A DNA stretch of 28,544 nucleotides, taken from Candidatus Methylomirabilis sp. GTDB taxonomy: Bacteria; Methylomirabilota; Methylomirabilia; Methylomirabilales; Methylomirabilaceae. The notes below the pieces were generated by a model. That model had not been told where the DNA came from. It made no database searches and saw nothing but the letters and a program-made list of their open reading frames with translations. How positions within the stretch are numbered: the stretch's first letter is position 1; each line of letters starts with the position of its first letter. Location: contig JBGQJI010000018.1 of assembly GCA_041498975.1 (NCBI GenBank), positions 1 to 28,544 of the forward strand. The letters are read 5' to 3'. The position numbers were made by a program, and so were the translations under genes. Shown here piece by piece: positions 1,253-28,544 of the stretch.

Positions 1253-1338
1253 TTGTCCCTTTGGGGCATGGCTGTCCCCGGGTCCATTTCTTTAATTTTC
1301 AATTGGTTAGCGAATTCGGTCGGCCTAAGAGTGGGGCA
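1253..1338 (+). promoter_or_regulatory. Putative upstream activating region A (enhancer-binding-protein sites plus IHF-like site)
   Basis: TTGTCCCTTTGGGGCA (1253-1268, imperfect dyad), TTTTCAATTGGTTAG (1296-1310) and AGTGGGGCA (1330-1338). All three recur in the same order and at near-identical spacing at 8004-8091. Confidence 0.6.
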
Positions 1339-1416
1339 CCGCTTTCCACCCTTATACCAGAAGGGCGTAAGCCGAAGCAACCGCTGATCGAGCTGTGATG
1401 GCGTGAAACGCAAGGA

Positions 1417-1429
1417 AATCAGAGGGTTA
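1417..1429 (+). promoter_or_regulatory. IHF-like binding site
   Basis: AATCAGAGGGTTA, 1 mismatch to WATCAANNNNTTR, 52 bp upstream of the -24 GG. Confidence 0.5.
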
Positions 1430-1466
1430 GGTCAAGCAATTCACTGCCGCTTGTGTCCTGTGGCCG

Positions 1467-1483
1467 TTGGCACTAGCGTTGCT
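1467..1483 (+). promoter_or_regulatory. sigma54 (RpoN) -24/-12 promoter A
   Basis: TTGGCAC-TAGCG-TTGCT; GG at 1469-70, N10, GC at 1481-82; intergenic, upstream of the cupredoxin gene. Confidence 0.8.
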
Positions 1484-1607
1484 CTCTAAAGAGCTGGCGG
1501 GCTGGGGTATGGCCGACATAAGCGATCGTTATCTCGCCCAAGCCGGACCCAGAACCCATGGGTCGGGCCGAGGTCACACGGACTATCAGGCAAAGGAGAT
1601 GATGAAG

Positions 1608-1958
1608 ATGAAGACGAAGGCAGCTGGCCTGCATCTTGTGACCGCGTTGCTGGTGCTTGGTGTAACTCTGATAGCTGGTAAGTCGGCGGCGGCCACCATC
1701 GTGAAGGTTGAGGAGTGTTCCATAAGCCCCGAAGAGGTAACCGTTCAGCGAGGCGAGCAGGTCATCTGGAAGGCTATGGGCGTAGCCAAACCAGAGTTTG
1801 AGTTCACGCCGACCGCGGAAGGCGTTCGCCTGAGCATTACCGAACAGGGAGACTTTGCCGCAACCTTCAAGGTCCCGGGAGAGTACCGCTATCACATGCA
1901 TATCCCGAAGGGGGGCCTGTCGGACCCTTGCACCCGTGGGAAGATCACAGTCAGATAG
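1608..1958 (+). CDS. Exported cupredoxin-fold protein with non-canonical metal ligands
   Basis: RBS AAGGAG at 1593-98, ATG 1608 (1599/1602 are alternatives). Signal peptide ending SAAA; SPEEVTVQRGEQVIW and FKVPGEYRY...GKITVR are plastocyanin-like strands. Confidence 0.72.
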   Translation: MKTKAAGLHLVTALLVLGVTLIAGKSAAATIVKVEECSISPEEVTVQRGEQVIWKAMGVAKPEFEFTPTAEGVRLSITEQGDFAATFKVPGEYRYHMHIPKGGLSDPCTRGKITVR

Positions 1959-2191
1959 CGACGGAATGACTCCGCTCCATGGCGTTTTGCCTGCGCCAGG
2001 CATCTCTCACGAAGACCGACAGGGCAGCGAAAGGAACGGCGCGAGCGCTGCCGATTCCTTGAAGCCACGGCCGACTGAGACGTTGTCGTGGCCGTGAGGC
2101 GAGGGGCTCTGCGACCGGCGTGGATCCGACACCGAGCAGTAGATGGGGAACCCTGCCGGCAGCAACCCGCATCTTCAGGAGGAGGAACGAT

Positions 2192-2497
2192 ATGCGAGCC
2201 AGCAGGAAAATTCTCCCCGCAGTCATCGTCATAGCGCTTATGGCGACGACCCTCGGTCTCGTCGCCCCATTCGCTAGGGCGATTGATGTCACTCGGATTG
2301 TCCGGGAGGGACAGCTCCTCGAGATGAGCTTTACCGAAATCACCGTGCACGAAGAGGATGGGAAGTATACCTATCAACTTGGCCCAACCGGTCGCTGGAC
2401 GTTGGATGCGTTGGGGATCGTTCCGGGCGACAGGATCCGCTACACTGTGTACGGGAGCTCGGGGTACGCTCACGACTTCCAGAAGCTGAGCAAGTGA
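2192..2497 (+). CDS. Small exported hypothetical protein (possible OB-like beta-barrel)
   Basis: Strong RBS AGGAGGAGG before ATG 2192; signal peptide ending ARA; beta-rich mature part with IVPGDRIRYTV. Confidence 0.7.
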   Translation: MRASRKILPAVIVIALMATTLGLVAPFARAIDVTRIVREGQLLEMSFTEITVHEEDGKYTYQLGPTGRWTLDALGIVPGDRIRYTVYGSSGYAHDFQKLSK

Positions 2498-2605
2498 GGC
2501 GGCCCGCCCTGGGGACAATGAAATCGGTAAGAGATACGAGGCAGGTAGTATAGCAGCATTGCGCATGCATCGGTTCGAATGCGTCACAGGCAAATGACCA
2601 ACAAC

Positions 2606-2640
2606 CCGAGCCTCGCTGGCAGCACGCCGTCGGGGCTCGG
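2606..2640. terminator. GC-rich stem-loop, possible terminator
   Basis: CCGAGCCTCG (2606-15) pairs with CGGGGCTCGG (2631-40) with one G-U, plus an inner stem; no clear U tract on the + strand. Confidence 0.3.
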
Positions 2641-2915
2641 TATGCCTCTGCTGGGCAGGGTTTCATCGTTCACACGATGGGCGGCGAGCAGTGATCCATG
2701 AACGGTGATGGGAAAGGGTGTCATCTCAGGCGTAGCCGTAGCATTGTTCGAATTGCCTTCGCTCTGCTGTAGAATGTGCGCCATGGGCGGGCTCTTTTGA
2801 TCCCCGCTTAGGGGAACATCTGAACGGTCGAGAAAGAGCGGCGTCAGCATCAAGAGGTATCTGTCGGAAGCCCTCATTGGTATCGAGTGAGGAGGTACTG
2901 GACAGGAGAAATGAC

Positions 2916-4664
2916 ATGACCGAAACCCAACAACCCGATCCCGCGGTCGACAGCGCTACCAATATCGACCGCCTCTTTCGTGCAAGGTTGGGACGCCTCA
3001 CCCTGGGCGTGTCGCCGACTGGGCTGATGCTTGCCTACCTCGACTGGCTGGTGCACCTGACCCTGGCTCCTGGCAAACAGCAGGAGCTCGTCAGAAACAT
3101 GCTGCGCAAGGCGTTCCGGTTCGGTTTCTACACCGCCCGGGCCGCTACCGACCCGACCACCCCACCCGCCATCGAACCGCTCCCCCAGGATCACCGCTTT
3201 GCCAGCGCAGAGTGGAGCCGCTGGCCGTTTAACCTCTACTACGAGTCCTTCCTCCTCTTAGAGCAGTGGTGGCATAGCGCGACCACCGGGGTGCATGGAG
3301 TCTCCCGCCACGCAGAGGATGTCGTGTCGTTTGTCTCGCGCCAGCTTCTCGATCTCTTTGCGCCGGCGAACTTTCCGATGACCAATCCCGAGATCTTGCA
3401 GGCCACGATCGAGCAGGGCGGGACCAATCTGATTCGCGGCGCGATTAACCTCATCGAGGACTGGGAACGCGCTATCTCAAGGCAGAAGCCCGTGGGGACC
3501 GAGGCGTTCAAGGTGGGGGAGACGGTGGCGAACACTCCCGGCAAGGTGATTTATCGCAACCAGCTCATCGAGCTCATCCAGTATGAGCCGACGACCGAGA
3601 CCGTCTACGCCGAGCCGATCCTGATCGTGCCCGCCTGGATCATGAAGTACTACATCCTTGATCTCTCTCCCAACAACTCGCTCGTCAAGTATCTGGTCGA
3701 TCGGGGGCACACGGTCTTTATGATCTCCTGGAAAAATCCGGGGCCGGAAGAGCGCGATCTCGGCATGGAGGACTACCGCACCATCGGCATCATGGAGGCG
3801 CTACGGGCGATCTCTGGAATCCTCCCTGAGCGCAAGGTCCGCGCGGCGGGATACTGCCTCGGCGGGACGCTCCTCTCGATCGCGGCTGCAGCCATGGCCC
3901 GGGATGGCGATGACCGCCTCAATAGCGTGACCCTCTTGGCAGCGGAGACCGACTTCACAGAGGCGGGCGAGCTGATGCTCTTCATCGACGAGACCCAGGT
4001 CACCTATCTGGAAGATATCATGTGGGATCAGGGCTACCTGGACACGAAGCAGACGGCGGGCGCCTTCCAGATCTTGCGCTCCAACGACCTGATCTGGTCG
4101 CGCATGGTGCACGACTATCTGCTGGGCCAGCGGGAGCCGATGACCGACCTGATGGCCTGGAACGCCGACGCTACCCGCATGCCCTATCGGATGCACTCCG
4201 AGTATCTGCGAAGCCTCTTTCTCAACAACGATCTGGCCGAGGGACGGTACAAGGTTGGGGGCCATCCGGTCACCCTTGCTGATATCCGCGCGCCCATCTT
4301 CGCGGTGGGCACCGTGAGAGACCATGTAGCGCCCTGGCGCTCGGTCTTCAAGATCCATCTGTTCGCCGACACCGACGTCACCTTTGTCCTGACCACCGGC
4401 GGCCACAATGCCGGGATCGTGAGCGAGCCGGGCCATCCGAAGCGGAGCTACCAGATGGCGACCCATAAAGAGGGCGAGAAACATCCCGATCCCGAAACCT
4501 GGCAGGCTGTCACACCCCAACATGAAGGGTCCTGGTGGCTGGCGTGGGAGCGCTGGTTGGCGGAACATTCGAGCGAACGGGTGGCGCCCCCGCCGATGGG
4601 TGCGCCCGACCGGGGCTTTCCGCCGCTTGAGGACGCGCCGGGAAGCTATGTCCTGCAGGAGTAG
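2916..4664 (+). CDS. phaC: Class I-type polyhydroxyalkanoate synthase
   Basis: RBS AGGAGA then ATG 2916. Motifs TPGKVIYRNQLIELIQY, PAWIMKYYILDL, lipase box GYCLGG, WNAD, DHVAPW, GGHNAGIV and GSWW. Confidence 0.95.
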   Translation: MTETQQPDPAVDSATNIDRLFRARLGRLTLGVSPTGLMLAYLDWLVHLTLAPGKQQELVRNMLRKAFRFGFYTARAATDPTTPPAIEPLPQDHRFASAEWSRWPFNLYYESFLLLEQWWHSATTGVHGVSRHAEDVVSFVSRQLLDLFAPANFPMTNPEILQATIEQGGTNLIRGAINLIEDWERAISRQKPVGTEAFKVGETVANTPGKVIYRNQLIELIQYEPTTETVYAEPILIVPAWIMKYYILDLSPNNSLVKYLVDRGHTVFMISWKNPGPEERDLGMEDYRTIGIMEALRAISGILPERKVRAAGYCLGGTLLSIAAAAMARDGDDRLNSVTLLAAETDFTEAGELMLFIDETQVTYLEDIMWDQGYLDTKQTAGAFQILRSNDLIWSRMVHDYLLGQREPMTDLMAWNADATRMPYRMHSEYLRSLFLNNDLAEGRYKVGGHPVTLADIRAPIFAVGTVRDHVAPWRSVFKIHLFADTDVTFVLTTGGHNAGIVSEPGHPKRSYQMATHKEGEKHPDPETWQAVTPQHEGSWWLAWERWLAEHSSERVAPPPMGAPDRGFPPLEDAPGSYVLQE

Positions 4665-4669
4665 GAGCC

Positions 4670-5032
4670 ACGGAGGGGGGCTGTCTGCTGACGGTGACCT
4701 TTTACGGTTCTGAGAAGGTGGTTGAGCATTACAATCTCATGGGACCGGTCAAGGCAGCCCTTGAAAGCGCGGTTCGCTATCTGGCCGCTGAACTCGGCTC
4801 CAAGGGGATCAGGGTCCACGCGATCTCACCCGGCCCATTAAAGACCCGGGCGGCTTCCGGGATCGACCGATTCGATGAACTCCTCGAACGGGCTGCTGCA
4901 CGAGCGCTCAAACACCACCTTGTCAGCATTGAAGATGTCGGGGCCCTGGCGGCTTTCTTGGTGGGCGACTGGGCCAAATCATTGACCGGTAACACGACCT
5001 ACGTCGATGCGGGCTACCACATCGTCGGCTAA
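4670..5032 (+). pseudogene. fabI: Enoyl-ACP reductase (FabI-type) C-terminal half only; N-terminal Rossmann region missing
   Basis: TEGGCLLTVTFYGSEKVVEHYNLMGPVKAALE (catalytic Y-x6-K), ISPGPLKTRAASGI and TGNTTYVDAG. Similarity begins about 5 nt after the phaC stop, leaving no room for the N-terminal half. Confidence 0.85.
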
Positions 5033-5059
5033 CGCGGATGCCTCCGGAGGAACCGCTCT

Positions 5060-6454
5060 ATGGAATACATCGAGAACCGAACCTTCGATGAAATAAGCGT
5101 CGGCGATTCAGCCAGCCTGAGCCGCACGCTGACAATGGATGACATCAACCTCTTCGCATTCATGTCAGGCGACGTCAATCCCGCTCATGTGGATGCGCAA
5201 TATGCCAAGAGCGACATGTTCCACAAGATCATCGCCCATGGCATGTGGGGTGGATCTCTGATCTCCACCCTGCTTGGCACCAAGCTCCCCGGCCCCGGCA
5301 CGATTTATCTCGGTCAAACGCTGGATTTCAGAAGGCCAGTCGCCCTAGGGGACACCATCACGGTCTCCGTCACTGCCACCGCCAAGGACCAGGAAAAGCA
5401 CCGGGTCACCTTCGATTGTCGATGCGTCAATCAACAGGGCGAGGTGGTCATCAGCGGCAGCGCGGAGGTGCTCGCCCCGACGGAGAAGGTAAAACGTCCA
5501 CGCATCATCCTCCCGGCGGTCCACATGCACGACCGAGGGGCACGGTACCAGCAACTGATCGCCCGTACCAAAGGGTTGGATCCGATCCGCACGGCGGTCG
5601 TGCATCCGGTTGACAGGAACTCGCTTCTTGGCGCGATCGACGCGGCTGAGGCCGATCTGATCATTCCGGTTCTAGTTGGCCCCGAAGCCAAGATCCGCGC
5701 GGTTGCCGAATCTGAGGGTGTGGACCTCTCGCCGTACACGGTGGTTCCGACGAGGCATAGCCATGAGGCTGCCGCCAAGGCCGTGGCCATGGCGCGTGCA
5801 GGCGAGGTCGAGGCATTGATGAAGGGGAGCCTGCACACCGACGAGCTCATGCATGAGGTGATTGCAAAGGAGACCGGCCTCGGGACGGCCCGTCGGATCA
5901 GCCATGTCTTTGTGATGGATGTCCCCACCTACCCGCGGCCGCTGTTCATCACAGATGCCGCCATCAACATCTATCCCGACCTGGATGATAAGCGCGACAT
6001 CGTCCAAAACGCCATCGACCTGGCCCTCGTCCTAGGATATGAAAACCCGAAGGTCGCGATCCTGTCGGCCGTTGAAACGGTGAGCGCGAAGCTTCGGTCC
6101 ACCATCGAGGCTGCGGCCCTCTGCAAGATGGCGGATCGCAGGCAGATCACCGGGGGAGTCGTTGACGGCCCGCTTGCGTTTGATAACGCCGTGTCAGAGG
6201 AGGCTGCGAAGGTCAAGGGGATCGTTTCGCCGGTCGCCGGAAGGGCCGACATCCTGGTGGTCCCGGACCTCGAATCGGGCAATATGCTGGCAAAGCAGCT
6301 GGAATACCTGGCCGAGGCGCAGTCCGCGGGCATCGTCCTCGGCGCGCGCGTCCCGATTGTGCTGACGAGCCGCGCGGACAAGACCATCAGCCGGATGGCC
6401 TCCTGCGCGATTGCCCTGCTGCTGGCGCGTTATAAGAGGACAACGGCGATATGA
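5060..6454 (+). CDS. Bifunctional MaoC/PhaJ-type (R)-enoyl-CoA hydratase - phosphate acetyl/butyryltransferase
   Basis: N-terminal hydratase motifs SGDVNPAH, IAHGMW and LPGPGTIY; C-terminal Pta/Ptb motifs LMKGSLHTD, TDAAINI, DGPLAFDNA, PDLESGNMLAK and LTSRAD. Confidence 0.93.
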   Translation: MEYIENRTFDEISVGDSASLSRTLTMDDINLFAFMSGDVNPAHVDAQYAKSDMFHKIIAHGMWGGSLISTLLGTKLPGPGTIYLGQTLDFRRPVALGDTITVSVTATAKDQEKHRVTFDCRCVNQQGEVVISGSAEVLAPTEKVKRPRIILPAVHMHDRGARYQQLIARTKGLDPIRTAVVHPVDRNSLLGAIDAAEADLIIPVLVGPEAKIRAVAESEGVDLSPYTVVPTRHSHEAAAKAVAMARAGEVEALMKGSLHTDELMHEVIAKETGLGTARRISHVFVMDVPTYPRPLFITDAAINIYPDLDDKRDIVQNAIDLALVLGYENPKVAILSAVETVSAKLRSTIEAAALCKMADRRQITGGVVDGPLAFDNAVSEEAAKVKGIVSPVAGRADILVVPDLESGNMLAKQLEYLAEAQSAGIVLGARVPIVLTSRADKTISRMASCAIALLLARYKRTTAI

Positions 6455-7683
6455 CCGAGGTCATCCTGGTGCTCAATGCCGGCTCGTCGAGCATCAAATT
6501 CTCCATTTTTGCGCTTGAGGGCGAGCAGCGATCGCTTGCTCTCGTCTACCGTGGGGAGGTCGAAGGGATCGGCGCCCAGCCACGCTTTGTTGTGAGCGAT
6601 TCTACGGGCAAGCACCTGGCGGAGGAGCGTGTCAGGTCAAGAGCCGCAGGCGATCTCAACCACGAAGATGCCCTTGCGGTCTTGCTGGGTTGGATCGATG
6701 GCCATGCTGCTGGATTGGCCATCATGGCGGCGGGTCACCGCGTGGTCCACGGTGGCGTGCTATTTTCGGCACCCGTGCTGATCGAATCGGCAGTGATCAG
6801 CCGATTAGAGAAGCTCGTTCCGCTGGCCCCGTTACACCAACCGCATAACATCGCCGCCATCAAGGCCCTGGTCAAGATGAAGCCGGAGCTACCGCAGGTG
6901 GCCTGTTTCGATACCGCATTCCATCGGACGCAGGGGCCGGTCGCCCAGGCATTCGCGTTGCCACGTGCCTTGTCAGAGGCGGGGATGAAGCGCTACGGCT
7001 TTCATGGGCTTTCCTACGAATACATCGCCCACGCCCTGCCCGGAGTCGCCGGCCCTGCGGCCGATGGTCGGGCTGTGGTCGCCCATCTGGGGAATGGGGC
7101 CAGCATGTGCGCCATGAAAGGTCGCAAGAGCATCGCCACAACCATGGGGTTTACCGCTCTCGAAGGCCTGCCGATGGGGACACGCTGCGGTGCCATTGAC
7201 CCGGGGGTCATCCTCTACCTGATGAGCGAGCAGGGGATGGACGTCGCGGCGGTGACGGACCTGTTGTACCACAGGTCGGGCCTTCTCGGCGTCTCTGGAA
7301 TCAGCAGCGACATGCGCGAACTGCTGGAAAGTCGCGAACCGCGCGCTGCTGAAGCGGTTGACCTCTTCGTGTACCGGATTGGGCGGGAGCTGGGATCCCT
7401 TGTCGCGTCTCTCGGAGGACTCGACGTTCTTGTCTTCACCGCCGGCATTGGGGAGCACGCCTCCGCGATCAGGGCGAGGGTCTGCGAAGACGCGAAGTGG
7501 CTGGGAGTTCGTCTTGATGAGGCAGCCAACCTCAGAGGAGGACCGAGGATCACCCGAGACGACAGCGCTGTTTCGGTCTGGGTGATCCCGACCGACGAGG
7601 AGCTGATGATTGCGCGGCACACGATCACGTGTTTGCAGCAGGCACCATCTTCCCGAGAGGTTGAACGGACGACATCATTGTAG
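6451..7683 (+). CDS. ackA: Acetate/propionate kinase
   Basis: LVLNAGSSSIKF, GHRVVHGG, APLHQP, FDTAFH, RYGFHGLSY, HLGNGAS, FTAGIGE and PTDEELMIA; ATGA overlap with the upstream gene. Confidence 0.96.
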   Translation: MTEVILVLNAGSSSIKFSIFALEGEQRSLALVYRGEVEGIGAQPRFVVSDSTGKHLAEERVRSRAAGDLNHEDALAVLLGWIDGHAAGLAIMAAGHRVVHGGVLFSAPVLIESAVISRLEKLVPLAPLHQPHNIAAIKALVKMKPELPQVACFDTAFHRTQGPVAQAFALPRALSEAGMKRYGFHGLSYEYIAHALPGVAGPAADGRAVVAHLGNGASMCAMKGRKSIATTMGFTALEGLPMGTRCGAIDPGVILYLMSEQGMDVAAVTDLLYHRSGLLGVSGISSDMRELLESREPRAAEAVDLFVYRIGRELGSLVASLGGLDVLVFTAGIGEHASAIRARVCEDAKWLGVRLDEAANLRGGPRITRDDSAVSVWVIPTDEELMIARHTITCLQQAPSSREVERTTSL

Positions 7684-8003: not shown

Positions 8004-8091
8004 TTGTCTCTCAGTGGGGCACGCCTGTCACAGAATCCCTTTCGTTAGTTTTCAATCGGTTAGTCGTCTTGCTGCATTTCGAAGTGGGGCA
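8004..8091 (+). promoter_or_regulatory. Putative upstream activating region B, homologous to region A
   Basis: TTGTCTCTCAGTGGGGCA from 8004, TTTTCAATCGGTTAG (8049-63) and AGTGGGGCA (8083-91). Confidence 0.6.
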
Positions 8092-8110: not shown

Positions 8111-8152
8111 GGAGACCCCGGTCTTTCCTGCCGCTGGTTGGTCGGGGTCTCC
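8111..8152. repeat. Perfect 10-bp inverted repeat
   Basis: GGAGACCCCG (8111-20) and CGGGGTCTCC (8143-52). Confidence 0.6.
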
Positions 8153-8217
8153 GCGTGAAAGCTAATGGATTCACAGAATTAGGCCGGCAATCGCGGCCTG
8201 TACGCGCCATCGGATCG

Positions 8218-8234
8218 TTGGCACCGGCATTGCT
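8218..8234 (+). promoter_or_regulatory. sigma54 -24/-12 promoter B
   Basis: TTGGCAC-CGGCA-TTGCT; GG 8220-21, N10, GC 8232-33; IHF-like ATTCACAGAATTA at 8169 (51 bp upstream, 2 mismatches). Confidence 0.82.
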
Positions 8235-8277: not shown

Positions 8278-8718
8278 ATGGATCATCGGATGATTTTGAT
8301 CGCCACCCCGGAGCCGTTGACCGGGCAGGAACTCCGGGGACGCTTCTCAGGTCAGGGGTATAAGACCGTTGCCGTGGAGCGGGGCAGCGATGCCCTGCTC
8401 TCCATCGCCGAGAGAAATATCAGCCTGGTCATTCTGGACATCTCAATCCAGGATCCCTCCGGCCCCAAGACGGTGGAGATCCTTCGAAAGATGCGGCCTC
8501 GCCTTCCAGTGGTCGTCTTTTCCGGCGACCCCTCCGTCGAAACGGGCCGCGAGATCCTTCAGCACGGCGTTTTCTACTACTTTCTCAAGCCGCTTGATCT
8601 CGAAGACCTGGACCAGATCGTCCGGGTCGCCCTTGCGCCCAATAAGCGACTCGGAGCGGGAACGGATCAAGGCGGCTCGAGAACCAGACTGGGAGACGAG
8701 AAAGGAGAGATGGCATGA
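8278..8718 (+). CDS. Stand-alone response-regulator receiver (CheY-like), atypical acidic pocket
   Basis: LVILD (phosphoacceptor), PVVVFSG and GVFYYFLKP; the post-beta1 acidic pair is replaced (ILIATPE); no output domain. Confidence 0.85.
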   Translation: MDHRMILIATPEPLTGQELRGRFSGQGYKTVAVERGSDALLSIAERNISLVILDISIQDPSGPKTVEILRKMRPRLPVVVFSGDPSVETGREILQHGVFYYFLKPLDLEDLDQIVRVALAPNKRLGAGTDQGGSRTRLGDEKGEMA

Positions 8719-9824: not shown

Positions 9825-9831
9825 GGTGGAG

Positions 9832-19405: not shown

Positions 19406-19423
19406 CGGCTGCCCTCGGCAGCA

Positions 19424-19591: not shown

Positions 19592-20113
19592 ATGAAGACA
19601 CCGATGAGAGGACGCAAGCGGTACAATCCCGCGTCATTCAAGAAGAAGGTGGACGTCCAGACCGACTCCTACATGCCCATCGGCGCGCCCGGCAAGCTGG
19701 TGGTCTGCGCCGGGTGCCACGCCATCTCAACAGGGAAGCGATGGCGCCTGGATGAGGAGGCCTATGCCAAGCTTCGTGGGGCGGGGACGACCAGGAAGGT
19801 CTTCTGTCCGGCTTGTGAGAAAATCCGCGATGGCTACCCGAGCGGGCAGTTGACGCTCAAAGGGCCATTTCTGGCCGAGCATCGTGAGGAGATCCTGCGC
19901 ATCATTGCCAACGAGGAGAAACGGGCCAGAGGGATCAATCCGCTCCATCGGATCATGAGCATTAGCGACAAGGATGGGGGACTCGAGATCGCGACAACCG
20001 ACGAGAAACTGGCGCAACGCATCGGGCGGGAGCTCCGCAAGGCCTGCGGGGGCACGGTGGCCTACGGGTGGTCGCACAATAACAAATTCCTGCGGGTGCA
20101 GTGGGAACGCTGA
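19592..20113 (+). CDS. BCAM0308-family (lxa locus-type) protein with two CxxC motifs
   Basis: DSY, VCAGCHA..GKRW, CPACEKIRDGYPSG.LTLKG.FL..HREEI, NPLHRIM and TTDEKLAQRIG match my recollection of this family. Confidence 0.8.
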   Translation: MKTPMRGRKRYNPASFKKKVDVQTDSYMPIGAPGKLVVCAGCHAISTGKRWRLDEEAYAKLRGAGTTRKVFCPACEKIRDGYPSGQLTLKGPFLAEHREEILRIIANEEKRARGINPLHRIMSISDKDGGLEIATTDEKLAQRIGRELRKACGGTVAYGWSHNNKFLRVQWER

Positions 20114-20126
20114 CGGGGCATCTCCA

Positions 20127-21332: not shown

Positions 21333-21353
21333 GGGTAAGAGAGGAGCGCGAAG

Positions 21354-21998
21354 ATGCGAGTCATGGATCGAATGCGGACTTCGCCGGTCAGCATCAGCCG
21401 GTCCGACACCTTGGACCATGCCCTGAGGACCCTGGAGTTCTGGAAGATCCGGCACCTCCCGGTTGTTGAAGGAGATCGTGTGGTTGGGATCGTGTCGGAT
21501 CGGGACCTCAAGAAGGCGGCTCCATCCCCGTTTGACCGTGACACCGCGGAGGAGTACCTGAGGTTGACCTGCGCGGTGACCATCAAGGAGGTCATGTCAA
21601 AGGAGGTGGTGACGATCTCTCCCCACGCTCCGATCGAGGAGGCGGCGAGCCTCATGTTCCGGAAGCGGATCGGCGCTCTGCCGGTCGTTCAGGACGGCAG
21701 GCTTGTGGGGATCATCACCGAGACCGATGTCCTTGGTGTGCTGACCGAGATGATGGGCGCCACCCAAACCGCGTCGCGAGTCGAGATCGAGGTCCCCGCA
21801 AGCCCCGGGGTCCTGACCGAGGTCATCCGGATCGTCGAGGGCCAGCAGGTGGAGATCGCGAGCCTTGTCACCCTGCAGGCGCGAGAAGGGGCGAGGCGCG
21901 TCGTCATCATCAGACTCCGGACCATCAATCCGGATCCCGTTGTCAAAGCGCTCACGGAGCGCGGCTATCCCCAGGTGGTCAGTGAGTTCGTGTGTTAG
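21354..21998 (+). CDS. CBS-pair plus ACT domain protein (second AcuB-like copy)
   Basis: IRHLPVV, SDRDLKKAAPSP, RIGALPVV..GIITETDV; ACT-like SRVEIEVPASPGVL..IIRL..RGY. Confidence 0.92.
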   Translation: MRVMDRMRTSPVSISRSDTLDHALRTLEFWKIRHLPVVEGDRVVGIVSDRDLKKAAPSPFDRDTAEEYLRLTCAVTIKEVMSKEVVTISPHAPIEEAASLMFRKRIGALPVVQDGRLVGIITETDVLGVLTEMMGATQTASRVEIEVPASPGVLTEVIRIVEGQQVEIASLVTLQAREGARRVVIIRLRTINPDPVVKALTERGYPQVVSEFVC

Positions 21999-22173
21999 TA
22001 CCGTTCCAACAATGTATGGCGACTGTGCCGTTCCGCGCGGTCGCGACCATTGCCATAAGGGACGCCGCTCAAACTCGGCCCATCAAGTTGGAACGGCACT
22101 AGAGCGGCATTGGCATCAGGGCCATGTGGATCGTCTCATCTGACGGCGGTCGAATGAGAGGAGGGGAAGGGCG

Positions 22174-22512
22174 ATGACACGAATCGTATCGAACGCGGGT
22201 CGGCTGATCACGGCGGCTGTCGCAGTCCTGGTTATCCTCGGACTGACCGCTGGAGGGGCTCTTGGGAAGGGGGAGGTCCGGGACATGGTCGGCAAGGTCG
22301 TTGCCGTGGAGCCGGGCTCCAAAACGATCGTCATCGAGACGACGGTGGGCAAGAGCATCATGACCGTTGGGGCCGAGGTTCCCGATACGGCCAGCATCAC
22401 GGCAGGGAAGGGGGCCAAGAAGCTCGCGGATGTCAAGGTCGGTGACAAGGTCAGGATGAAGTGGCTTCGCGAAGAGAAGGGACTGGTCGTCCAGTCGATC
22501 GCGATCCAGTAG
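22174..22512 (+). CDS. Small exported OB-fold-like protein
   Basis: Purine-rich RBS, signal peptide, GKVVAVE..TIVI and LADVKVGDKVRM. Confidence 0.75.
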   Translation: MTRIVSNAGRLITAAVAVLVILGLTAGGALGKGEVRDMVGKVVAVEPGSKTIVIETTVGKSIMTVGAEVPDTASITAGKGAKKLADVKVGDKVRMKWLREEKGLVVQSIAIQ

Positions 22513-22702
22513 GCGGGGATTGAAGCGAGCGAGTGGGCTCCTCTGGACATGGCGCGATCATCCGGCCCGTCCGTATGTCTCAGCCCAACGCCGCCGCCCG
22601 GGACGGCCCCGGGCTGAGAGCTCGCGGGAGCTGCCCGTGAACGAGAACAACGCCACTCGCTGATTGGCAGGCTGAGCGGATCGCGGAAAGGGGAGAGGCA
22701 TC

Positions 22703-23188
22703 GTGGCAAAACTGGGCACTCAATTCGCTGTGGTCGCCATTGTCGGCCTCCTTCTGGCAACCGACTCGGTAGCTCAGGTTGGAAGAGATTTTCGGTATAA
22801 GGGAAGTGGAGGCTGGGGGACGGGAGGTCAATACGGCAAGATGTACGATACCAAGACCGTGGAGACCGTGAGTGGGGAAGTTGTCAGCGTGACCAAGATG
22901 ACGCCCATGCAGGGGATGTCCACCGGTGTGCATCTCATGCTCAAGACAGATAAGGAGACGGTCTCCGTTCATCTGGGCCCCGGGTGGTATCTCGAAAACC
23001 AGGACGTGAAAGTCGAGCCGGAGGACAAGATCGAAGTCAAGGGCTCGAGAATTACCTTCAATGGCAAACCGGCGATCATCGCGGCTGAGGTAAGGAAGGG
23101 ATCTGAAGTGTTGAAACTCCGCGATGAAACCGGTTTCCCCGTGTGGGCTGCTTGGAAATCACCCGGAGATCCCAGGCATCGGCAGTGA
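22703..23188 (+). CDS. Exported conserved hypothetical protein (OB-fold-like, Gly-rich N-terminus)
   Basis: Signal peptide ending SVA; YDTKTVETVSGEV, GVHLML, VHLGPGWYL, DKIEVKGS and LRDETGFPVW. Confidence 0.8.
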   Translation: MAKLGTQFAVVAIVGLLLATDSVAQVGRDFRYKGSGGWGTGGQYGKMYDTKTVETVSGEVVSVTKMTPMQGMSTGVHLMLKTDKETVSVHLGPGWYLENQDVKVEPEDKIEVKGSRITFNGKPAIIAAEVRKGSEVLKLRDETGFPVWAAWKSPGDPRHRQ

Positions 23189-23872
23189 ATGGGGCCTAAG
23201 AGGCACTCGCAGGAAGAGGTACTCGATCCCTCGCTCGACCAGAGCCTGGAGGCGCTCTATCGGCTCAACCAGCATGGCGCTGCTGTGCCGGTGAAGGCCC
23301 TGGCGAAGAAGCTCCGGATATCGCGTGCAGAGGCCGCCGAGCGGGTTGTGCGCCTCCAGGCGCTCGGCTTCGTGACGAGCAACGCCGCCCTCGATCTGAC
23401 CTTGACCCCATCGGGAGCGGCATGGGGTGCCGTTCGGATCAGGCGGCATCGCCTCGTCGAGCGCCTGTTGCACGATCAGTTGGGGCTCCCATGGGAACAG
23501 GTCCACGAAGAGGCGGCGCGTATCGCACCGGCCATCTCCTTCGCGCTGGAAGAGCGACTCGATGCCGTCCTCGGCCACCCGGTCGCGTGCCCTCACGGCA
23601 ACCCGATCCCCGCCCCTGACGGATCGGTTATTGTTGAGCCGGCTACACCCCTGGATCGGCTGCGGCCGGGCTCGAAGGGGACGATCGCCGCCATCCTGCA
23701 GGAAGAGCCGCAGCTCCTGCGGTATCTGGCGGCGCTCGGCCTTTTTCCGAAGACGGAACTGGAGGTCGAGGAGGTTGCGCCCTTGGGTGGGCCGATCGTG
23801 GTGAAAGTGGGAGCTTCCAGATACGCCCTTGGCCGGGAAGTGGCGTCGCGGATCCTGATTCGGGAAACGTGA
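23189..23872 (+). CDS. DtxR/IdeR/MntR-family protein with C-terminal FeoA (SH3) domain; metal site degenerate
   Basis: LTPSG, RRHRLVERLL...GLPWEQVHEEA, LGHPVACPHGNPIP; FeoA-like LRYLAALGLFP..APLGGPIVV..ALG. Confidence 0.88.
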   Translation: MGPKRHSQEEVLDPSLDQSLEALYRLNQHGAAVPVKALAKKLRISRAEAAERVVRLQALGFVTSNAALDLTLTPSGAAWGAVRIRRHRLVERLLHDQLGLPWEQVHEEAARIAPAISFALEERLDAVLGHPVACPHGNPIPAPDGSVIVEPATPLDRLRPGSKGTIAAILQEEPQLLRYLAALGLFPKTELEVEEVAPLGGPIVVKVGASRYALGREVASRILIRET

Positions 23873-23876
23873 GACG

Positions 23877-25895
23877 ATGGCACTGACGTGCTGTCAATCG
23901 GTCCTGCAATTCAAAGGCGAGGTGCAGATGACCATTGCCCTGGCCGGTAACCCGAACGTCGGCAAATCCAGCCTCTTCAATCGGCTGACCGGAATGGGCG
24001 TGGTCACCGCCAACTACCCGGGAAAAACGGTGGACGTGAACATGGGCGTCACCCACTTCCAGGATATGGTGGTAGGGGTCATCGATCTGCCTGGTACGTA
24101 TGCACTAGAGCCGGTCTCGGAGGATCAATGGGTGGCGAGACAGGCCCTTCTGGACGGCCGTCCGGATGCGGTCATCTCGGTGGTGGACGCGACAAACATG
24201 GCGCGAAACCTCTACCTGACCTTGCAACTCCTCGACCTGGGGCTCCCGGTGGTCGTGGCGTTAAACCTCATGGATGAGGCCGAGCGCCTGGGGTTGGCAG
24301 TTGACCCGGTCCTCCTGGCCAAGGATCTAGGTGTCCCCGTGGTCCCGACGGTTGCGGTCCGTGGACTGGGGCTCGACCTTGTGATCGCCAAGGCGGTCGA
24401 GACGGCTACGTCAGCGGAGTCGGCGGGGCGTCGCGGACTGCGGTACGGCCGGGACGTGGAGGAGCAGATCGACGCGTTGGCCGCATATCTGGAGGCGGAG
24501 GAGGAGGTCACACCCCCGTTCGGTCTGTCGCCAAGAGCGACAGCGATCCTCCTGCTGGAGTCGGACGAGGAGATGCTACGATGGGCAGAGCAGCAGCCGC
24601 AGGGTGCGGCGATCCTGGCCGAAGCGAGGAGCGCCGCAGCGGAGATCTCTGAGCGGCATGGGGAGCCGGCTCCCCTTCGCCTGACCAGGGAGCGGCACGG
24701 CCTGGCAGGCGCGATTGCGCAAGCGGCGCAAGCCCGAGGCAGAGCTCGACGGTCTTTACAGGAACGCGTCTGGCACCTGACCACAGCCCCCCTGACCGGA
24801 ATACCGATCCTCCTTCTGATGCTCCTGAGCCTTTTCGCCATCCTTTTTTCCGTGGGCAATTTCCTTTCCGATCTCCTGAGCGGCCTCTGGGCCGCTTGGG
24901 CCTCGCCCCCTATCCAGGCCGCGCTCGCCTGGATCCTGGGTGACGGATTCTTCGCCAGAAGCCTGGTCTGGGGGTTCGATGCCGGGATCAATGCAGCCCT
25001 GGCGGTCGGAATTCCTTACGTGTTGACCTTCTACCTCCTTCTGTCCGCCTTCGAGGACACCGGCTACTTGAACGCGGCGGCCTTCCTGACCGATCCACTC
25101 CTGCACCGGGTCGGGCTCCATGGCAGGGCGATCATTCCGTTGGTTGCCGCGGCGGGGTGCAACGTCCCGGCTGTCATGGCCACCAGGACGCTGACGACCA
25201 TGCGGGAGCGAGTGATCTGCGCCACCCTGATCTGCTTCGTTCCCTGCAGCGCCAGGACCGCAGTGATCGCAGGGGCCGTCTCCAGATACCTCGGGTGGGG
25301 GCCGGCCATAGGGCTCTTTGTCATCGTTGCGGCGGTCGGGACGGCCGCCGGGTGGGGATTGAATCGGGTGGTGCCGGGGCGTCGGACCGGCCTGGTGATG
25401 GAGATGTTCCCGTTCCGGCTTCCCTCCTTCAGGAATCTGCTGCGCCGGACCTGGTTTCGCTTCAAAGAGTTCGTCTTTGTCGCCGCGCCGGTGGTTGTTT
25501 CCGGAAGCCTCCTGTTGGGCGGCCTGTACGAGAGCGGGCTGATGTGGCGGCTGGCCGCGCCCCTGTCCCCTGTCACGAGCTGGTGGCTTGGCCTGCCCGC
25601 GGTCACCGGCCTGACATTGCTCTTTGGGATTTTGCGCAAGGAGCTTGCGTTGCAGCTTCTGGTGACGCTGGCCATGGTCCAGTACGGGCGCGGAGCGGGC
25701 GATTTACTCCACTTCATGACCATGAAACAGCTTTTTGTCTATGCCCTGGTCAACGCGCTGTTCATTCCCTGCTTGGCCACGATCGCGGTCCTGGGAAGGG
25801 AGTTGGCCTGGCGAAGAACGCTCCTGATTGCGCTCTTCAACATCGTGGTCGCGCTCGGGGTTGGCGGGCTCGTGAGCCGCCTCTGGATGGGATGA
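23877..25895 (+). CDS. feoB: Ferrous iron transporter B
   Basis: G1 GNPNVGKS, NYPGKTV, DLPGTY and NLMD; gate regions GCNVPA, PCSAR, GLVME and IPCLAT. ATG 23928 is an alternative start. Confidence 0.95.
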   Translation: MALTCCQSVLQFKGEVQMTIALAGNPNVGKSSLFNRLTGMGVVTANYPGKTVDVNMGVTHFQDMVVGVIDLPGTYALEPVSEDQWVARQALLDGRPDAVISVVDATNMARNLYLTLQLLDLGLPVVVALNLMDEAERLGLAVDPVLLAKDLGVPVVPTVAVRGLGLDLVIAKAVETATSAESAGRRGLRYGRDVEEQIDALAAYLEAEEEVTPPFGLSPRATAILLLESDEEMLRWAEQQPQGAAILAEARSAAAEISERHGEPAPLRLTRERHGLAGAIAQAAQARGRARRSLQERVWHLTTAPLTGIPILLLMLLSLFAILFSVGNFLSDLLSGLWAAWASPPIQAALAWILGDGFFARSLVWGFDAGINAALAVGIPYVLTFYLLLSAFEDTGYLNAAAFLTDPLLHRVGLHGRAIIPLVAAAGCNVPAVMATRTLTTMRERVICATLICFVPCSARTAVIAGAVSRYLGWGPAIGLFVIVAAVGTAAGWGLNRVVPGRRTGLVMEMFPFRLPSFRNLLRRTWFRFKEFVFVAAPVVVSGSLLLGGLYESGLMWRLAAPLSPVTSWWLGLPAVTGLTLLFGILRKELALQLLVTLAMVQYGRGAGDLLHFMTMKQLFVYALVNALFIPCLATIAVLGRELAWRRTLLIALFNIVVALGVGGLVSRLWMG

Positions 25896-25905
25896 ACCGG
25901 CCTTC

Positions 25906-26736
25906 GTGTCTGGGATCGCGGTGGTCCAGCGAATCGTGATGATGGTGGACGGCTCCTTCGCGACCGAGACATCGGCGCGCTACAGTCTGGCTCTGGCCAA
26001 GGCCTGCGGGGCGGAGTTGGAGCTCGTATTTGTCGCGGGGGATGAGTTGGGTGCGGCGATGAAGCGGGCCGAGGAATCGCTCCTGCGCCTCTTTCGCCAG
26101 GCACACTCCCTGGGGTTAAAGGTGAGGAGCGTGACCGAGGCGGGTGATCCGGTCCGGGTATTGCGGGAGCATGTGGTGCGGGAGGGGATCTCGCTGGCTG
26201 TGGCCTCGGCGACAAACACCCAGATCGTTCGCCGCCTGCTGCATGAGTTGCCGTGCGCCATCCTCCTGGTTCGGGTGGTGCATCCGGGTCGGATGGCTTC
26301 GCCTCATGAGATCCTGGTCCCGGTCTATCCTGGCGAGTTCGAAGGTGGCGGCATGGAGGAGGCGGCTGATCTCCTCGCGAACCTGGGGGGTTACTGGCAG
26401 GCTCGAATCGTGCTCTTCCAGTTGAGGCGACCGATGACCCAGCTCTTCGATCGGAAACTCTTTGGGGGCGGTGTCCGGGAGCTAGAGGAAACGAAGCTGC
26501 ATCGGTTCATCTCGGCACTGACCCATCGCGGCCTGTCCCCGGGGACGAGGGTTGCATGGGGTCGCCATATCGGCGAGGGAATCACGGCCGAGGCGGCCGC
26601 CAGGCGACATGATCTGATCTTTCTGGGCACGAAGGGGCCAAGGGGGTTCATCCAGCGGTTTCGGGCTGGAGCTGTGGAACATCTGATGCGGACCACCCCC
26701 TGCGACCTGATGCTCTTCCGGCCGGCGGCCGCCTGA
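25906..26736 (+). CDS. Tandem-domain universal stress protein
   Basis: RIVMMVDGS, LPCAILLV, EILVPV, DLIFLG..G and TPCDLMLF; start codon uncertain. Confidence 0.82.
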   Translation: MSGIAVVQRIVMMVDGSFATETSARYSLALAKACGAELELVFVAGDELGAAMKRAEESLLRLFRQAHSLGLKVRSVTEAGDPVRVLREHVVREGISLAVASATNTQIVRRLLHELPCAILLVRVVHPGRMASPHEILVPVYPGEFEGGGMEEAADLLANLGGYWQARIVLFQLRRPMTQLFDRKLFGGGVRELEETKLHRFISALTHRGLSPGTRVAWGRHIGEGITAEAAARRHDLIFLGTKGPRGFIQRFRAGAVEHLMRTTPCDLMLFRPAAA

Positions 26737-26758
26737 ATCGGCAGGGTGGTAAGCGATC

Positions 26759-28544
26759 ATGCAGATTCATCGGCTTTCGCCCGAAGAGGCGCTGGGGGCA
26801 CTTGGGACCTCGGACGAGGGGTTGAGCGACGCCGAGGCCGCCAAGCGGCTCGAACAATTCGGCCCGAACGAACTTCGAGCCGCGGAGAAGATACCCTACC
26901 TTGCCATGCTGGCAAAGCAGTTTACGCATTTTCTTGCCCTCCTGCTCTGGGCCGCGGCGGCTCTGGCATTTGCCGCGGACAGGATGAAGCCAGGGGAGGG
27001 AATGGATCTGCTCGGCTGGGCCATTATTGGGGTTATCGCGGTGAACGCCCTCTTCTCTTTTGTCCAGGAATACAGGGCGGAGCGGGCCCTCATGGCCCTC
27101 AAGCGCCTCCTTCCAATTCACGTCAAGGTCCTCCGGCTCGGGGAGATCAAGGAGATGCCGGCTTCCATGCTGGTTCCGGGAGATCTTGTGATCCTCGCCG
27201 AAGGGGACCGAGTTCCTGCTGATGGGCGGATCATTACCTCAGCCCTGCTGAGGGTGAACAACGCGCCCCTAACCGGCGAGTCGATTCCCAAGACCCGCCG
27301 GCCCGAGGCCGCCCTCGAGGGGACGCTCCTGCAGAGCCCCAACATCGTATTCGCTGGCACCAACATCCTTTCGGGGACCGCGAGGGCGGTCACCTTTGCC
27401 ACCGGGATGAACACCGAGTTCGGCAAGATCGCGCACCTGGCCTCTGCGGTCGAGATGGAAATGAGTCCCCTACAGTGGGAGATCGTGAAAGTCACTCGAC
27501 TGATCGCCGTGCTCTCCGTCGGGATCGGCGTCGCGTTTTTCTGGCTGGGCGTGGCGATCGGGAGAAGCCTGTGGGAGAACTTTGCCTTCGCCATGGGGAT
27601 CCTGGTAGCGATCGTGCCTGAGGGGCTCCTTCCCACAGTCACGCTCTCGCTGGCGGTGGGAGCACAGCGAATGGCAAAGCGGAAGGCGCTCATCAAGAAT
27701 CTTCCCTCGGTGGAGACGTTGGGATGCGCCACCGTGATCTGCACGGATAAGACGGGGACCCTCACCGAGAACCGGATGGCTGTGACCCGTGTCTACGTCG
27801 ATGGACTCGAGGTTCAGGTGTCGGGAGGCTCTTTCATCACTGAGGCAGGCGCCCAGGTGCCTGCCGAGCTTCAGGGTAGATGGGCCCCTCTCTTTGCGAT
27901 CGCGACCGGGTGCAATGATGCCCGCCGCCGTCACGACCTGGCCGGGAAAGGATCGGCATTCGTCGGCGACCCGACAGAGATCGCCCTCCTGCAGTTCGCG
28001 GACGCCGTATCGCGGGATGCCGTTGAAGGGACGACTCGGCTTCAGGAGTTCCCCTTCGACGCCGACCGGAAGCGGATGACTACCATTCACCGGACAGCGT
28101 CCGGGAAGAGGGTCGCCTACGTCAAAGGTGCGCCCGAGCTCCTGCTTCCGCTCTGCTGCTTGATCTATCGCGACGGTAAAGCGAGCCCCCTGGAGGAGGC
28201 CGAGCGCCGGACGATCGTTGACCGCCTGGATCTGTTCGCCGAGTCGGCCTTGCGGGTCCTCGCCCTGGCCTACCGAGAGCTTCCCGAAGGCATGGCGCTG
28301 TCGGTGATGGAAGACGTGGAGCGGGACCTGACGTTCGTCGGCCTGGTCGCCATGCTGGATCCGCCCAGGCCTGAGGTCCCCGAAGCGGTCGCTCGGTGCA
28401 GGAGGGCCGGGATCAAGACGATCATGATCACCGGAGACAACAGCCGGACAGCCCTGGCGATCGCCCGGGCCATAGGGATGGTCTGCGGGGAGTACGCTGC
28501 CGTTCTGGAAGGGCACCAGGTTGAGGCGATGCGGGATGATGAGC
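26759..28544 (+). CDS. Cation-transporting P-type ATPase, type II (IIC-like), runs off the window
   Basis: Not in the ORF track because it has no stop in the window. MQIHRL..GLSDAEAAKRL..GPNEL, LTGES, VAIVPEGLLPTVT, ICTDKTGTLT, PFDADRKRMT, KGAPE, DPPRPEV and MITGD. Confidence 0.95.
   Translation, partial: MQIHRLSPEEALGALGTSDEGLSDAEAAKRLEQFGPNELRAAEKIPYLAMLAKQFTHFLALLLWAAAALAFAADRMKPGEGMDLLGWAIIGVIAVNALFSFVQEYRAERALMALKRLLPIHVKVLRLGEIKEMPASMLVPGDLVILAEGDRVPADGRIITSALLRVNNAPLTGESIPKTRRPEAALEGTLLQSPNIVFAGTNILSGTARAVTFATGMNTEFGKIAHLASAVEMEMSPLQWEIVKVTRLIAVLSVGIGVAFFWLGVAIGRSLWENFAFAMGILVAIVPEGLLPTVTLSLAVGAQRMAKRKALIKNLPSVETLGCATVICTDKTGTLTENRMAVTRVYVDGLEVQVSGGSFITEAGAQVPAELQGRWAPLFAIATGCNDARRRHDLAGKGSAFVGDPTEIALLQFADAVSRDAVEGTTRLQEFPFDADRKRMTTIHRTASGKRVAYVKGAPELLLPLCCLIYRDGKASPLEEAERRTIVDRLDLFAESALRVLALAYRELPEGMALSVMEDVERDLTFVGLVAMLDPPRPEVPEAVARCRRAGIKTIMITGDNSRTALAIARAIGMVCGEYAAVLEGHQVEAMRDDE

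Follow-up and report, generated by a model that had tools for sequence, protein, structure and literature searches.

The 28,544-nt contig JBGQJI010000018.1 of Candidatus Methylomirabilis sp. (contig C18 of assembly GCA_041498975.1; the whole stretch is called the window below) probably carries four operons of a single sigma-54 regulon, headed by the promoters P1 to P4. In this regulon, an NtrC-type activator encoded on another contig (C86) would bind dyad-symmetric upstream sites and, with DNA looping by a protein of the integration host factor (IHF) type, switch on a survival program at low oxidant or energy. The window makes up about 1% of an assembly of 2.68 Mb in 241 contigs that is 85% complete. 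According to open reading frame (ORF) and profile annotation, all of its likely genes lie on the plus strand, and the co-oriented gene set listed in a first-pass annotation of this DNA was recovered in full: two universal stress proteins (USPs; 14570–15028 and 25906–26736), four CBS-pair proteins (starts at 9826, 12159, 16821, and 21354), Hsp20 (18932–19405), a BCAM0308-family protein (19592–20113; NCBIfam NF040826, 134.8 bits against a cut-off of 100), an APH-fold protein (15025–16152), an APS-kinase-like P-loop protein (16109–16768), a type II P-type ATPase starting at 26759, and phaC, MaoC-pta, and ackA (together 2877–7683).

The available evidence supports P1 to P4 as sigma-54-type promoters, with P4 being weaker than the others (Table 1). 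Four GG-N10-GC promoters had been claimed at these places, and P1 to P3 match the strict pattern TGGCAY-N5-TTGCW, which occurs 3 times in the window against 0.09 expected, a count reached in 0 of 100 shuffles. Genome-wide there are 26 strict matches, 3 of them in the window's 1% of length. With up to two mismatches allowed, the -24/-12 pattern shows no enrichment (21 found in the window, 24.3 expected), and the case therefore rests on the strict matches, their position ahead of genes, and the elements upstream of them. The rpoN gene, the presence of which had been named as a check, was found in the genome (one Sigma54_DBD match, 206 bits). The idea that P1 is a plain duplicate of P2 is not supported, as their global identity (154/231) is barely above that of P1 with P3 (138) or with P4 (141).

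Alignment of the upstream regions on the GG revealed a dyad, TGGGGCA-N4-TGYCCCA, near -205 and -135 in P1, P2, and P3, and near -130 in P4. Genome-wide, the dyad was present upstream of 12 of 119 relaxed sigma-54 candidates, with positions clustering at -200 to -206 and -128 to -136. When the consensus and the two position windows were learned from the window and matches were counted only on other contigs, the 115 sigma-54 candidates there carried a dyad at the learned positions 6 times, compared with 0.34 expected (Poisson P ~2e-6). A weight-matrix scan identified eight dyad pairs exactly 70 bp apart and added promoters on contigs C108, C167, and C211. An inverted-repeat finder applied to the four intergenic regions returned only a 10-nt hairpin at 8111–8152 and missed the dyads, and a pattern of two dyads 40–60 nt apart, which proved too strict, gave no match in genome G008. 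The fixed arrangement suggests that the dyads are binding sites of one NtrC-type activator, and the same layout heads at least six further operons in the genome.

The expectation of an IHF-like site about 50 nt upstream of each promoter was borne out at all four, exactly at P1 and P3 and with two mismatches at P2 and one at P4. The exact IHF consensus WATCARNNNNTTR occurs 3 times in the window against 0.44 expected, and two of these occurrences are at -52 of P1 and -51 of P3. A second IHF-like block, TTTCAATnGGTTA, is located between both dyads of P1 and of P2. The genome contains an IHF-alpha-like gene (111.4 bits against a cut-off of 111) and an HU-like gene. The FNR box TTGAT-N4-ATCAA, reported as missing from the intergenic DNA in the first-pass annotation, has no exact match in the window, and matches with up to two mismatches stay at chance level (9 against 6.8 expected). 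The best of them, TTAATGGGAATCAA (one mismatch, 10181–10194), is found at the end of a CBS gene, ahead of a 620-nt gap and a CMD-family gene.

To describe the relatives we use the family labels f1, f4, f5, f6, and f7; the genus of the present genome belongs to f1. At the level of sequence, the promoter layout is conserved in relatives of four families. In the P2 region of six of the seven genus genomes examined, both dyads, both IHF-like blocks, and the -24/-12 element are kept while the spacers diverge; the seventh genome, G010, has lost both the receiver gene and P2. The promoter ahead of the gene for ADP-forming acetyl-CoA synthetase (ACD; contig C45) is kept in all four orthologous loci. 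Conservation of the elements in relatives, which had been proposed as a check, thus holds for P2 and the ACD promoter, and fails in part for P4 (3 of 14 loci) and for the promoter of the CRP/FNR-family gene on C45, which is kept in two of four orthologous loci, the gene being inside a longer operon in the other two. Genome G021, from another family, has the full layout ahead of a CBS-APH-kinase operon. A composite pattern (GGGR-N8-YCCC, a gap of 180–200 nt, and TGGCAY-N5-TTGC) was searched in 251 genomes of the phylum with the reversed pattern as control, giving 94 matches for the former and 2 for the latter (sums of per-group columns). Genomes with the pattern comprise 9/19 in f1 plus the present genome, 11/15 in f4, 5/6 in f5, 2/2 in f7, and 0/21 in f6, with a thin scatter of mostly non-dyad-like matches outside f1, f4, f5, and f7. 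First genes behind such promoters in f4, f5, and f7 include those for phosphoenolpyruvate (PEP) synthase- or pyruvate phosphate dikinase-like proteins, the gamma subunit of pyruvate:ferredoxin oxidoreductase, a GNAT followed by a USP, receivers, and, in f4, Fe2+ transport proteins.

The first-pass annotation had supposed that the promoters are controlled by an enhancer-binding protein (EBP) encoded outside the window, and had named the location of NtrC-family EBPs in the genome as a check. We located 14 full EBPs (PF00158), of which the REC-AAA+-HTH_8 protein of contig C86 is the most likely activator of these promoters, since its close relatives are found at loci with the pattern, it tracks the pattern across genomes, and its gene adjoins such promoters. 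The protein has a receiver domain with the receiver Asp (in LVLTDLRM), an AAA+ domain with the GAFTGA loop and the Walker A motif GETGTGKE, and a Fis-type HTH. The preceding gene encodes a PAS-HisKA-HATPase kinase, with a GAF part present in f4. AtoC and AtoS are the best NCBIfam models for the pair (NF008469, 512 bits against a cut-off of 714; NF008468, 302 against 646); both scores are well below the cut-offs, so we call the pair AtoS/AtoC-like rather than members of these families. The best solved kinase core for the C86-linked kinase is that of ZraS.

Comparison of the genome's own EBPs (n = 15) with 30 loci picked solely by the DNA pattern revealed 70–72% identity for the C86 type only, at four loci in f4 and f5, the other EBPs showing at most 56% identity to the same genes. 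Of 66 genomes examined in the order, 28 have an ortholog of the C86 activator (at least 64% identity); the 21 genomes of f6 have none, their best match reaching 49–52%. In the 66 genomes, activator and pattern occur together in 22, the activator only in 6, the pattern only in 6, and neither in 32, corresponding to an odds ratio of 19.6; the relatives are not independent, so a P value for this table overstates the link and was given no weight. Genomes G010, G018, and G001 of the genus and G030 of f4, all at least 92% complete, have neither a C86-type activator nor any pattern match, which points to repeated joint loss of the switch. Among the six activator-only genomes, three have variant layouts: G008 and G006 carry a variant P2, and in G021 the promoter falls one base outside the gap range of the pattern. 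A dyad with a sigma-54 promoter within 600 nt after the activator stop codon was present at 11 of the 24 ortholog loci with downstream DNA (7/8 in f4, 2/2 in f5, and 2/12 in f1); in G009 the gene order is kinase, activator, P2, receiver, and beta-propeller. No dyad pair was found on any of the 15 EBP contigs of the present genome, where the stretch after the kinase-activator pair is rich in repeats and lacks a target promoter. This DNA (C86 2640–3000) contains short units of the types GTCATTGCGAGGAG and CTCGCAATGAC; similar strings are present upstream of the C108 promoter, and the repeats may belong to a dispersed family that breaks the assembly.

Motifs, fixed geometry, conservation, and linkage to the activator gene were computed; we infer binding of the activator to the dyads and firing by sigma-54, and, from gene content, a signal of oxidant or energy loss. 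In the proposed mechanism, the soluble (GAF)-PAS histidine kinase encoded just upstream would phosphorylate the C86 activator, which would then assemble on the dyads near -135 and -205; an IHF-type protein would loop the DNA via the bend site near -50 and a second site between the dyads, allowing the activator to open the closed sigma-54 complex. The regulon would include, in the window, the USPs, CBS proteins, Hsp20, kinases, Feo iron uptake, P-type ATPase, and phaC-pta-ackA, and elsewhere in the genome ACD, FtsH, a resistance-nodulation-division (RND) pump, an OmpA-like protein, single-domain receivers, and the CRP/FNR-family regulator with a NarL-type two-component system. This gene content suggests a program for survival and substrate-level ATP formation upon loss of oxidant or energy, and such a signal would make it a survival program like the lxa locus of Burkholderia cenocepacia or the DosR regulon of Mycobacterium tuberculosis. 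The first-pass annotation had sigma-54 acting instead of FNR, FixK, or DosR. The sigma-54 promoters and the lack of FNR-box enrichment agree with this, but "instead" is too strong, because one such promoter (C45, GG 6895) itself heads the genes for a CRP/FNR-family regulator and for a GAF-HisKA_3 kinase with its NarL-type regulator, making a cascade as likely as a replacement. The CRP/FNR-family protein has only two N-terminal cysteines and scores far below every NCBIfam cut-off.

Several observations weigh against the proposed regulon, besides the non-independence of the relatives noted above. P4 is poorly kept, with the -12 GC lost in 11 of 14 genus loci (several having GT at -12) and the dyad region missing in 7 of these loci, where the radical SAM gene ends close to the USP gene; in most relatives, transcription of the USP row thus probably begins further upstream or at a different promoter. 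On its own, the dyad shows no genome-wide enrichment (32 sites at one mismatch or fewer, 32.1 expected), so the signal lies in its position relative to the -24/-12 element. The weight matrix was trained on 10 of these promoters, so that for the 70-bp spacing only C108, C167, and C211 constitute new evidence. In the present genome and at nine other f1 loci there is no such promoter behind the activator gene. No ortholog was found in the six pattern-only genomes, of which G063 (96% complete) and G061 have dyad-like matches; of the remainder, two have G/C runs instead of dyads and two are at most 80% complete.

These points leave room for other explanations, of which the most serious concerns the cue. 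The regulon and activator could be as described while responding to a metal or envelope signal, as in ZraSR, or to a short-chain acid, as in AtoSC, with USP, CBS, and Hsp20 proteins as general stress cargo. A metal cue would fit the RND pump with its CusB-type adaptor, FeoAB with the DtxR-like regulator, the cupredoxin-like protein, and the P-type ATPase, as well as the Fe2+ transport proteins behind such promoters in f4, and the best matches of the pair (AtoC, AtoS, and the ZraS core) speak for a metal, envelope, or acid cue. However, the AtoC and AtoS scores fail the curated cut-offs, and these models are the best match for many NtrC-type regulators. Moreover, most members are fermentation or energy genes (ACD, pta-ackA, PEP synthase-like, and pyruvate:ferredoxin oxidoreductase) or encode nucleotide-binding stress proteins, and their functional classes match the low-oxygen-induced lxa list; we thus regard a metal or acid cue as unlikely, though worth keeping in mind.

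It is considerably less probable that the -24/-12 elements are genuine while the dyad belongs to some other kind of regulator (for example, a repressor or co-activator), with a different EBP or several EBPs serving the promoters and the C86 pair being just one target or neighbor. Binding of the C86 protein to the dyad is a prediction, the 70-bp spacing is much wider than the 5–24 bp between the sites of the Myxococcus regulator NmpR, the genome offers 14 full EBPs, and the dyad is unenriched by itself; yet only the C86 type adjoins pattern matches, in three families, and it tracks the pattern down to the joint losses in f1 and f4, and enhancers usually take the form of dyad-symmetric sites upstream of an IHF site. 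Least credible of all is that the motif matches are non-functional, with the operons read from sigma-70-type promoters and the conserved blocks serving something else. Sigma-70-like matches do occur at 11550–11579 and 14174–14202, the former being TTGGCA-18-GATAAT (10/12) inside the P3 region, and P4 lacks the GC in most relatives. Yet such matches are not enriched in the window (5 against 3.1 expected), none of the 100 shuffles gave three strict sigma-54 matches, and the GG and GC are kept at P2 in six genomes and at the ACD promoter in five. In P3, the sigma-70-like match shares bases with a further sigma-54-like match that lacks the GC (TGGCACAATGGTTTC at 11551); the stretch, which is flanked by the proximal dyad and the IHF site, could be a second promoter.

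The closest known counterpart of the sigma-54 regulon proposed here is that of NmpR in Myxococcus xanthus. According to the available part of the published account, NmpR is an NtrC-like activator that acts at sigma-54 promoters under hypoxia, with targets including a CBS protein, a single-domain USP, a P-type ATPase with cbb3 oxidase, and hemN; its sites are GCGCA-N5-TGCGC, mostly 14–15 bp apart within a range of 5–24 bp, and its sensor is the protoglobin kinase NmpU in a multi-step relay with the hybrid kinase NmpS (PMC11841059). The first-pass annotation had considered the regulatory logic undescribed for such a gene set, a claim that does not survive this precedent. As far as that account goes, the two systems share the NtrC-like regulator, dyad-symmetric upstream sites, sigma-54 promoters, and CBS, USP, and P-type ATPase targets; the signaling genes of NmpRSTU are among its own targets, which we count as another shared feature. 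They differ in that the dyad here is TGGGGCA-N4-TGYCCCA at a spacing of 70 bp with IHF-like sites, in that a (GAF)-PAS-HisKA kinase is encoded next to the activator instead of a protoglobin relay, and in that the regulon is much larger and includes fermentation genes. In the window, the NmpR motif shows no enrichment (3 occurrences at one mismatch or fewer, 1.96 expected), and every occurrence is inside a gene, none in a promoter region.

The resemblance to the lxa locus proposed in the first-pass annotation is supported at the level of gene families. For B. cenocepacia J2315, the available part of the report describes measured induction at low oxygen and an Anr/FNR-type motif, TGA-N6-TCA, at 17 intergenic points; its Table 4 lists USPs, a small heat-shock protein, acetate kinase, phosphate acetyl/butyryl transferase, a short-chain dehydrogenase/reductase (SDR) of the acetoacetyl-CoA reductase type, a class I polyhydroxyalkanoate (PHA) synthase, a cation ATPase, an ATP-dependent Zn protease, an Anr-like CRP regulator, two-component systems, and an efflux-type transporter with an outer-membrane part (PMC3721108). 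All of these functional classes and the BCAM0308 family are represented in the present genome, as a family-level match in which orthology was checked for BCAM0308 only. The two systems differ in control, which is of Anr/FNR type there and by sigma-54 with an enhancer here (the full FNR box is unenriched and the short TGA-N6-TCA core was not scanned); low-oxygen induction was measured there and is inferred here, and the genes here are spread over at least nine contigs.

The DosR (DevR) regulon of M. tuberculosis carries USPs, alpha-crystallin, a CBS protein, and a type II P-type ATPase as cargo, with a GAF kinase and a NarL-family regulator; mycobacteria, to our knowledge, lack sigma-54. Here, by contrast, sigma-54 is predicted to stand above the GAF-HisKA_3 kinase and its NarL-type regulator, which form part of the cargo instead of heading the regulon; this kinase combines a HAMP domain with a single GAF domain. 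In Escherichia coli, the two-component system AtoS/AtoC, with its NtrC-type activator, is linked to metabolism of acetoacetate and short-chain acids and to polyhydroxybutyrate-related metabolism; the present pair differs from it in scores that fall far short of the equivalog cut-offs, in its target set, and in the kinase lacking a membrane part in the Pfam scan. Predicted sigma-54 regulons were surveyed in a 2025 paper, which includes USP genes among predicted targets in Planctomycetia and makes no mention of NC10 in the available part of its text, and no published account of sigma-54 control in Methylomirabilis was found among the literature matches listed. With the NmpR-type sigma-54 hypoxia regulon already known, what appears new here is the placing of an lxa-like gene set in a stereotyped sigma-54 regulon that extends across the order, together with a candidate sensor-activator pair that is well supported.

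A bolder extension, which we put forward only tentatively and consider more doubtful than not, is that an AtoS/AtoC-like system with sigma-54 might be the master switch for dormancy or oxidant starvation across most of the order to which the nitrite-dependent methane oxidizers belong, working through a paired-dyad 70-bp enhancer with two bends, standing above FNR-type and NarL/DosR-type regulators, and recruiting acquired modules such as phaC-pta-ackA, which is behind a P2-like promoter and present in 0 of 19 genus relatives. The regulon proposed above would in any case be a second, independent instance, after Myxococcus NmpR, of sigma-54 heading a USP/CBS/P-type ATPase stress set, which Proteobacteria and mycobacteria put under FNR or DosR, and its enhancer geometry is unusually stereotyped. 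The NC10 nitrite-dependent methane oxidizers grow very slowly and are hard to study, and the proposed regulon bears on how they may survive the loss of nitrite, methane, or self-made oxygen. The analysis offers a predicted regulon with a defined DNA site, a named sensor-activator pair, and markers from which physiological state could be read in field samples, lending itself to gel shifts, reporters, and metatranscriptomes; its phylogenetic pattern is clear, with four families having the layout and 0 of 21 genomes in f6.

Table 1. Promoter elements and predicted operons of the window, promoters of the same layout on other contigs, and the candidate activator gene (window positions unless a contig is named)
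Feature	Position	Strand	Remarks
UAS1 (upstream activator site) of P1, TGGGGCATGGCTGTCCCC	1262–1279	+	distal dyad; 207 nt upstream of GG 1469
IHF-like site between P1 dyads, TTTCAATTGGTTA	1297–1309	+	block conserved in P2 of relatives
UAS2 of P1	1332–1349	+	proximal dyad; exactly 70 bp after UAS1
Proximal IHF-like site of P1, AATCAGAGGGTTA	1417–1429	+	exact consensus; 52 nt upstream of GG
P1 -24/-12 element, TGGCACTAGCGTTGCT	1468–1483	+	GG 1469; strict match
P1 operon (inferred)	1509–7683	+	cupredoxin-like 1509–1958; hypothetical 2120–2497; class I PHA synthase (phaC) 2877–4664; truncated SDR 4694–5032; MaoC-phosphate acetyltransferase fusion 5060–6454; acetate kinase (ackA) 6451–7683
UAS1 of P2, TGGGGCACGCCTGTCACA	8015–8032	+	
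IHF-like site between P2 dyads, TTTCAATCGGTTA	8050–8062	+	block conserved in 6 genomes
UAS2 of P2	8085–8102	+	70 bp after UAS1
Proximal IHF-like site of P2, ATTCACAGAATTA	8169–8181	+	2 mismatches; TTTCAAnnAGTTAGG in relatives
P2 -24/-12 element, TGGCACCGGCATTGCT	8219–8234	+	GG 8220; strict match; conserved in 6/7 genus genomes examined
P2 operon (inferred)	8278–11224	+	single-domain receiver 8278–8718; 7-bladed beta-propeller 8715–9824; CBS pair 9826–10257
CMD-family gene	10880–11224	+	620-nt gap before; membership in P2 operon uncertain
UAS1 of P3, TGGGGTGTCGATGTCCCA	11417–11434	+	
UAS2 of P3, TGTGACAGCAATTCCCCA	11498–11515	+	81 bp after UAS1
IHF-like site of P3, AATCAACAAGTTA	11582–11594	+	exact consensus; 51 nt upstream of GG
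P3 -24/-12 element, TGGCATCCGGCTTGCT	11632–11647	+	GG 11633; strict match
P3 operon (inferred)	11720–14044	+	hypothetical 11720–12004; CBS pair 12159–12701; TIGR04053 radical SAM/SPASM 12920–14044
Dyad of P4, TGGGGTATCGGTGCCCCA	14328–14345	+	perfect palindrome; 130 nt upstream of GG; no clear distal dyad
IHF-like site of P4, AATCAGCAAGTTT	14410–14422	+	1 mismatch; 48 nt upstream of GG
P4 sigma-54-like element, TGGTATATATTGTGCA	14457–14472	+	GG 14458; weaker match; GG-N10-GC kept in 3/14 genus loci
P4 gene row	14570–28543	+	USP, APH-fold kinase, APS-kinase-like, CBS-ACT, two GNATs, Hsp20, BCAM0308-family, archaeal-type SAM synthetase, CBS, two hypotheticals, DtxR-FeoA, FeoB, tandem USP, type II P-type ATPase
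C86 activator gene	C86 1040–2413		REC-AAA+(GAFTGA)-HTH_8 (Pfam architecture)
C45 promoter, ACD	C45, GG 1281		ACD, receiver, GltD-like protein, radical SAM protein
C45 promoter, CRP	C45, GG 6895		CRP/FNR-family regulator, HAMP-GAF-HisKA_3 kinase, NarL-type regulator, receiver, porin, cytochromes c, molybdopterin oxidoreductase
C118 promoter	C118		dyad layout; FtsH
C108 promoter	C108		outer-membrane factor, CusB-type adaptor, 5' end of AcrB gene (RND pump)
C167 promoter	C167		dyad layout; OmpA-like protein
C211 promoter	C211		340-residue hypothetical protein, Tat-type molybdoenzyme
C42 promoter	C42		dyad layout; 100-residue ORF
C72 and C60 promoters	C72, C60		dyad layout; at contig ends

Regarding the phaC cluster, the first-pass annotation had allowed for separate regulation. 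As phaC is 1.4 kb downstream of GG 1469 in the same orientation, and a simple scan of the stretch from 1483 to 2877 revealed neither a sigma-70-like promoter nor a terminator, the cluster most likely depends on P1. None of the 19 other genus genomes gave a match to phaC (E <= 1e-80), suggesting that the PHA-acetate block is a recent addition behind a regulon promoter, and the phaC-pta-ackA block looks horizontally acquired. A single donor could not be named, since relatives sharing 70–73% identity with the MaoC-Pta fusion turn up in groups as far apart as Alphaproteobacteria, Acidobacteriota, Rokubacteria, Chloroflexota, and Burkholderiales. At 80 loci with MaoC-Pta fusion relatives from many phyla, acetate kinase adjoins the fusion in 60 and phaC in 13; in raw counts without a shuffled control, these loci contain 8 exact FNR boxes (in 6 loci), a box with up to one mismatch in 36 loci, and 2 strict sigma-54 motifs, both on the opposite strand. 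The ORF at 4694–5032 matches only the C-terminal half (profile positions 128–236 of 236) of an SDR of the enoyl-ACP or acetoacetyl-CoA reductase type, and is probably a truncated phaB-like gene between phaC and pta.

In the P3 operon, the ATG at 11720 behind GGGAGGGG was taken as the start of the first gene, as the listed GTG at 11651 precedes the expected RNA start. The P4 row may be a single transcript; it contains three gaps of 176–191 nt, each roomy enough for another promoter, and its type II P-type ATPase gene continues past the window end. Within this bacterial stress operon, the gene following that of the BCAM0308-family protein encodes an archaeal-type methionine adenosyltransferase (19974–21332; NF003363, 590.6 bits against a cut-off of 557), a position kept in relatives; it also occurs with the APH and kinase genes in f4. 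No Rfam family reached its gathering score in the whole window. The window opens with the 3' end of an AcrB-type pump gene, of which the 5' end on C108 is probably the other part.

Of the two promoters located at contig ends, that of C72 is in a stretch that relatives do not keep at the corresponding place; the beginning of C60 has matches at several places in relatives, which gives it the look of a repeated element. On C211, a gene for an Rrf2-family regulator of the IscR/NsrR type (1992–2465, minus strand) is located directly upstream of the dyad pair and sigma-54-like promoter. On C42, a few kb from the regulon promoter, the minus strand (11560–13464) encodes an unusual 634-residue fusion of a tandem USP, three PCP_red repeats (protochlorophyllide reductase 57 kD subunit), and a rubredoxin-like domain.

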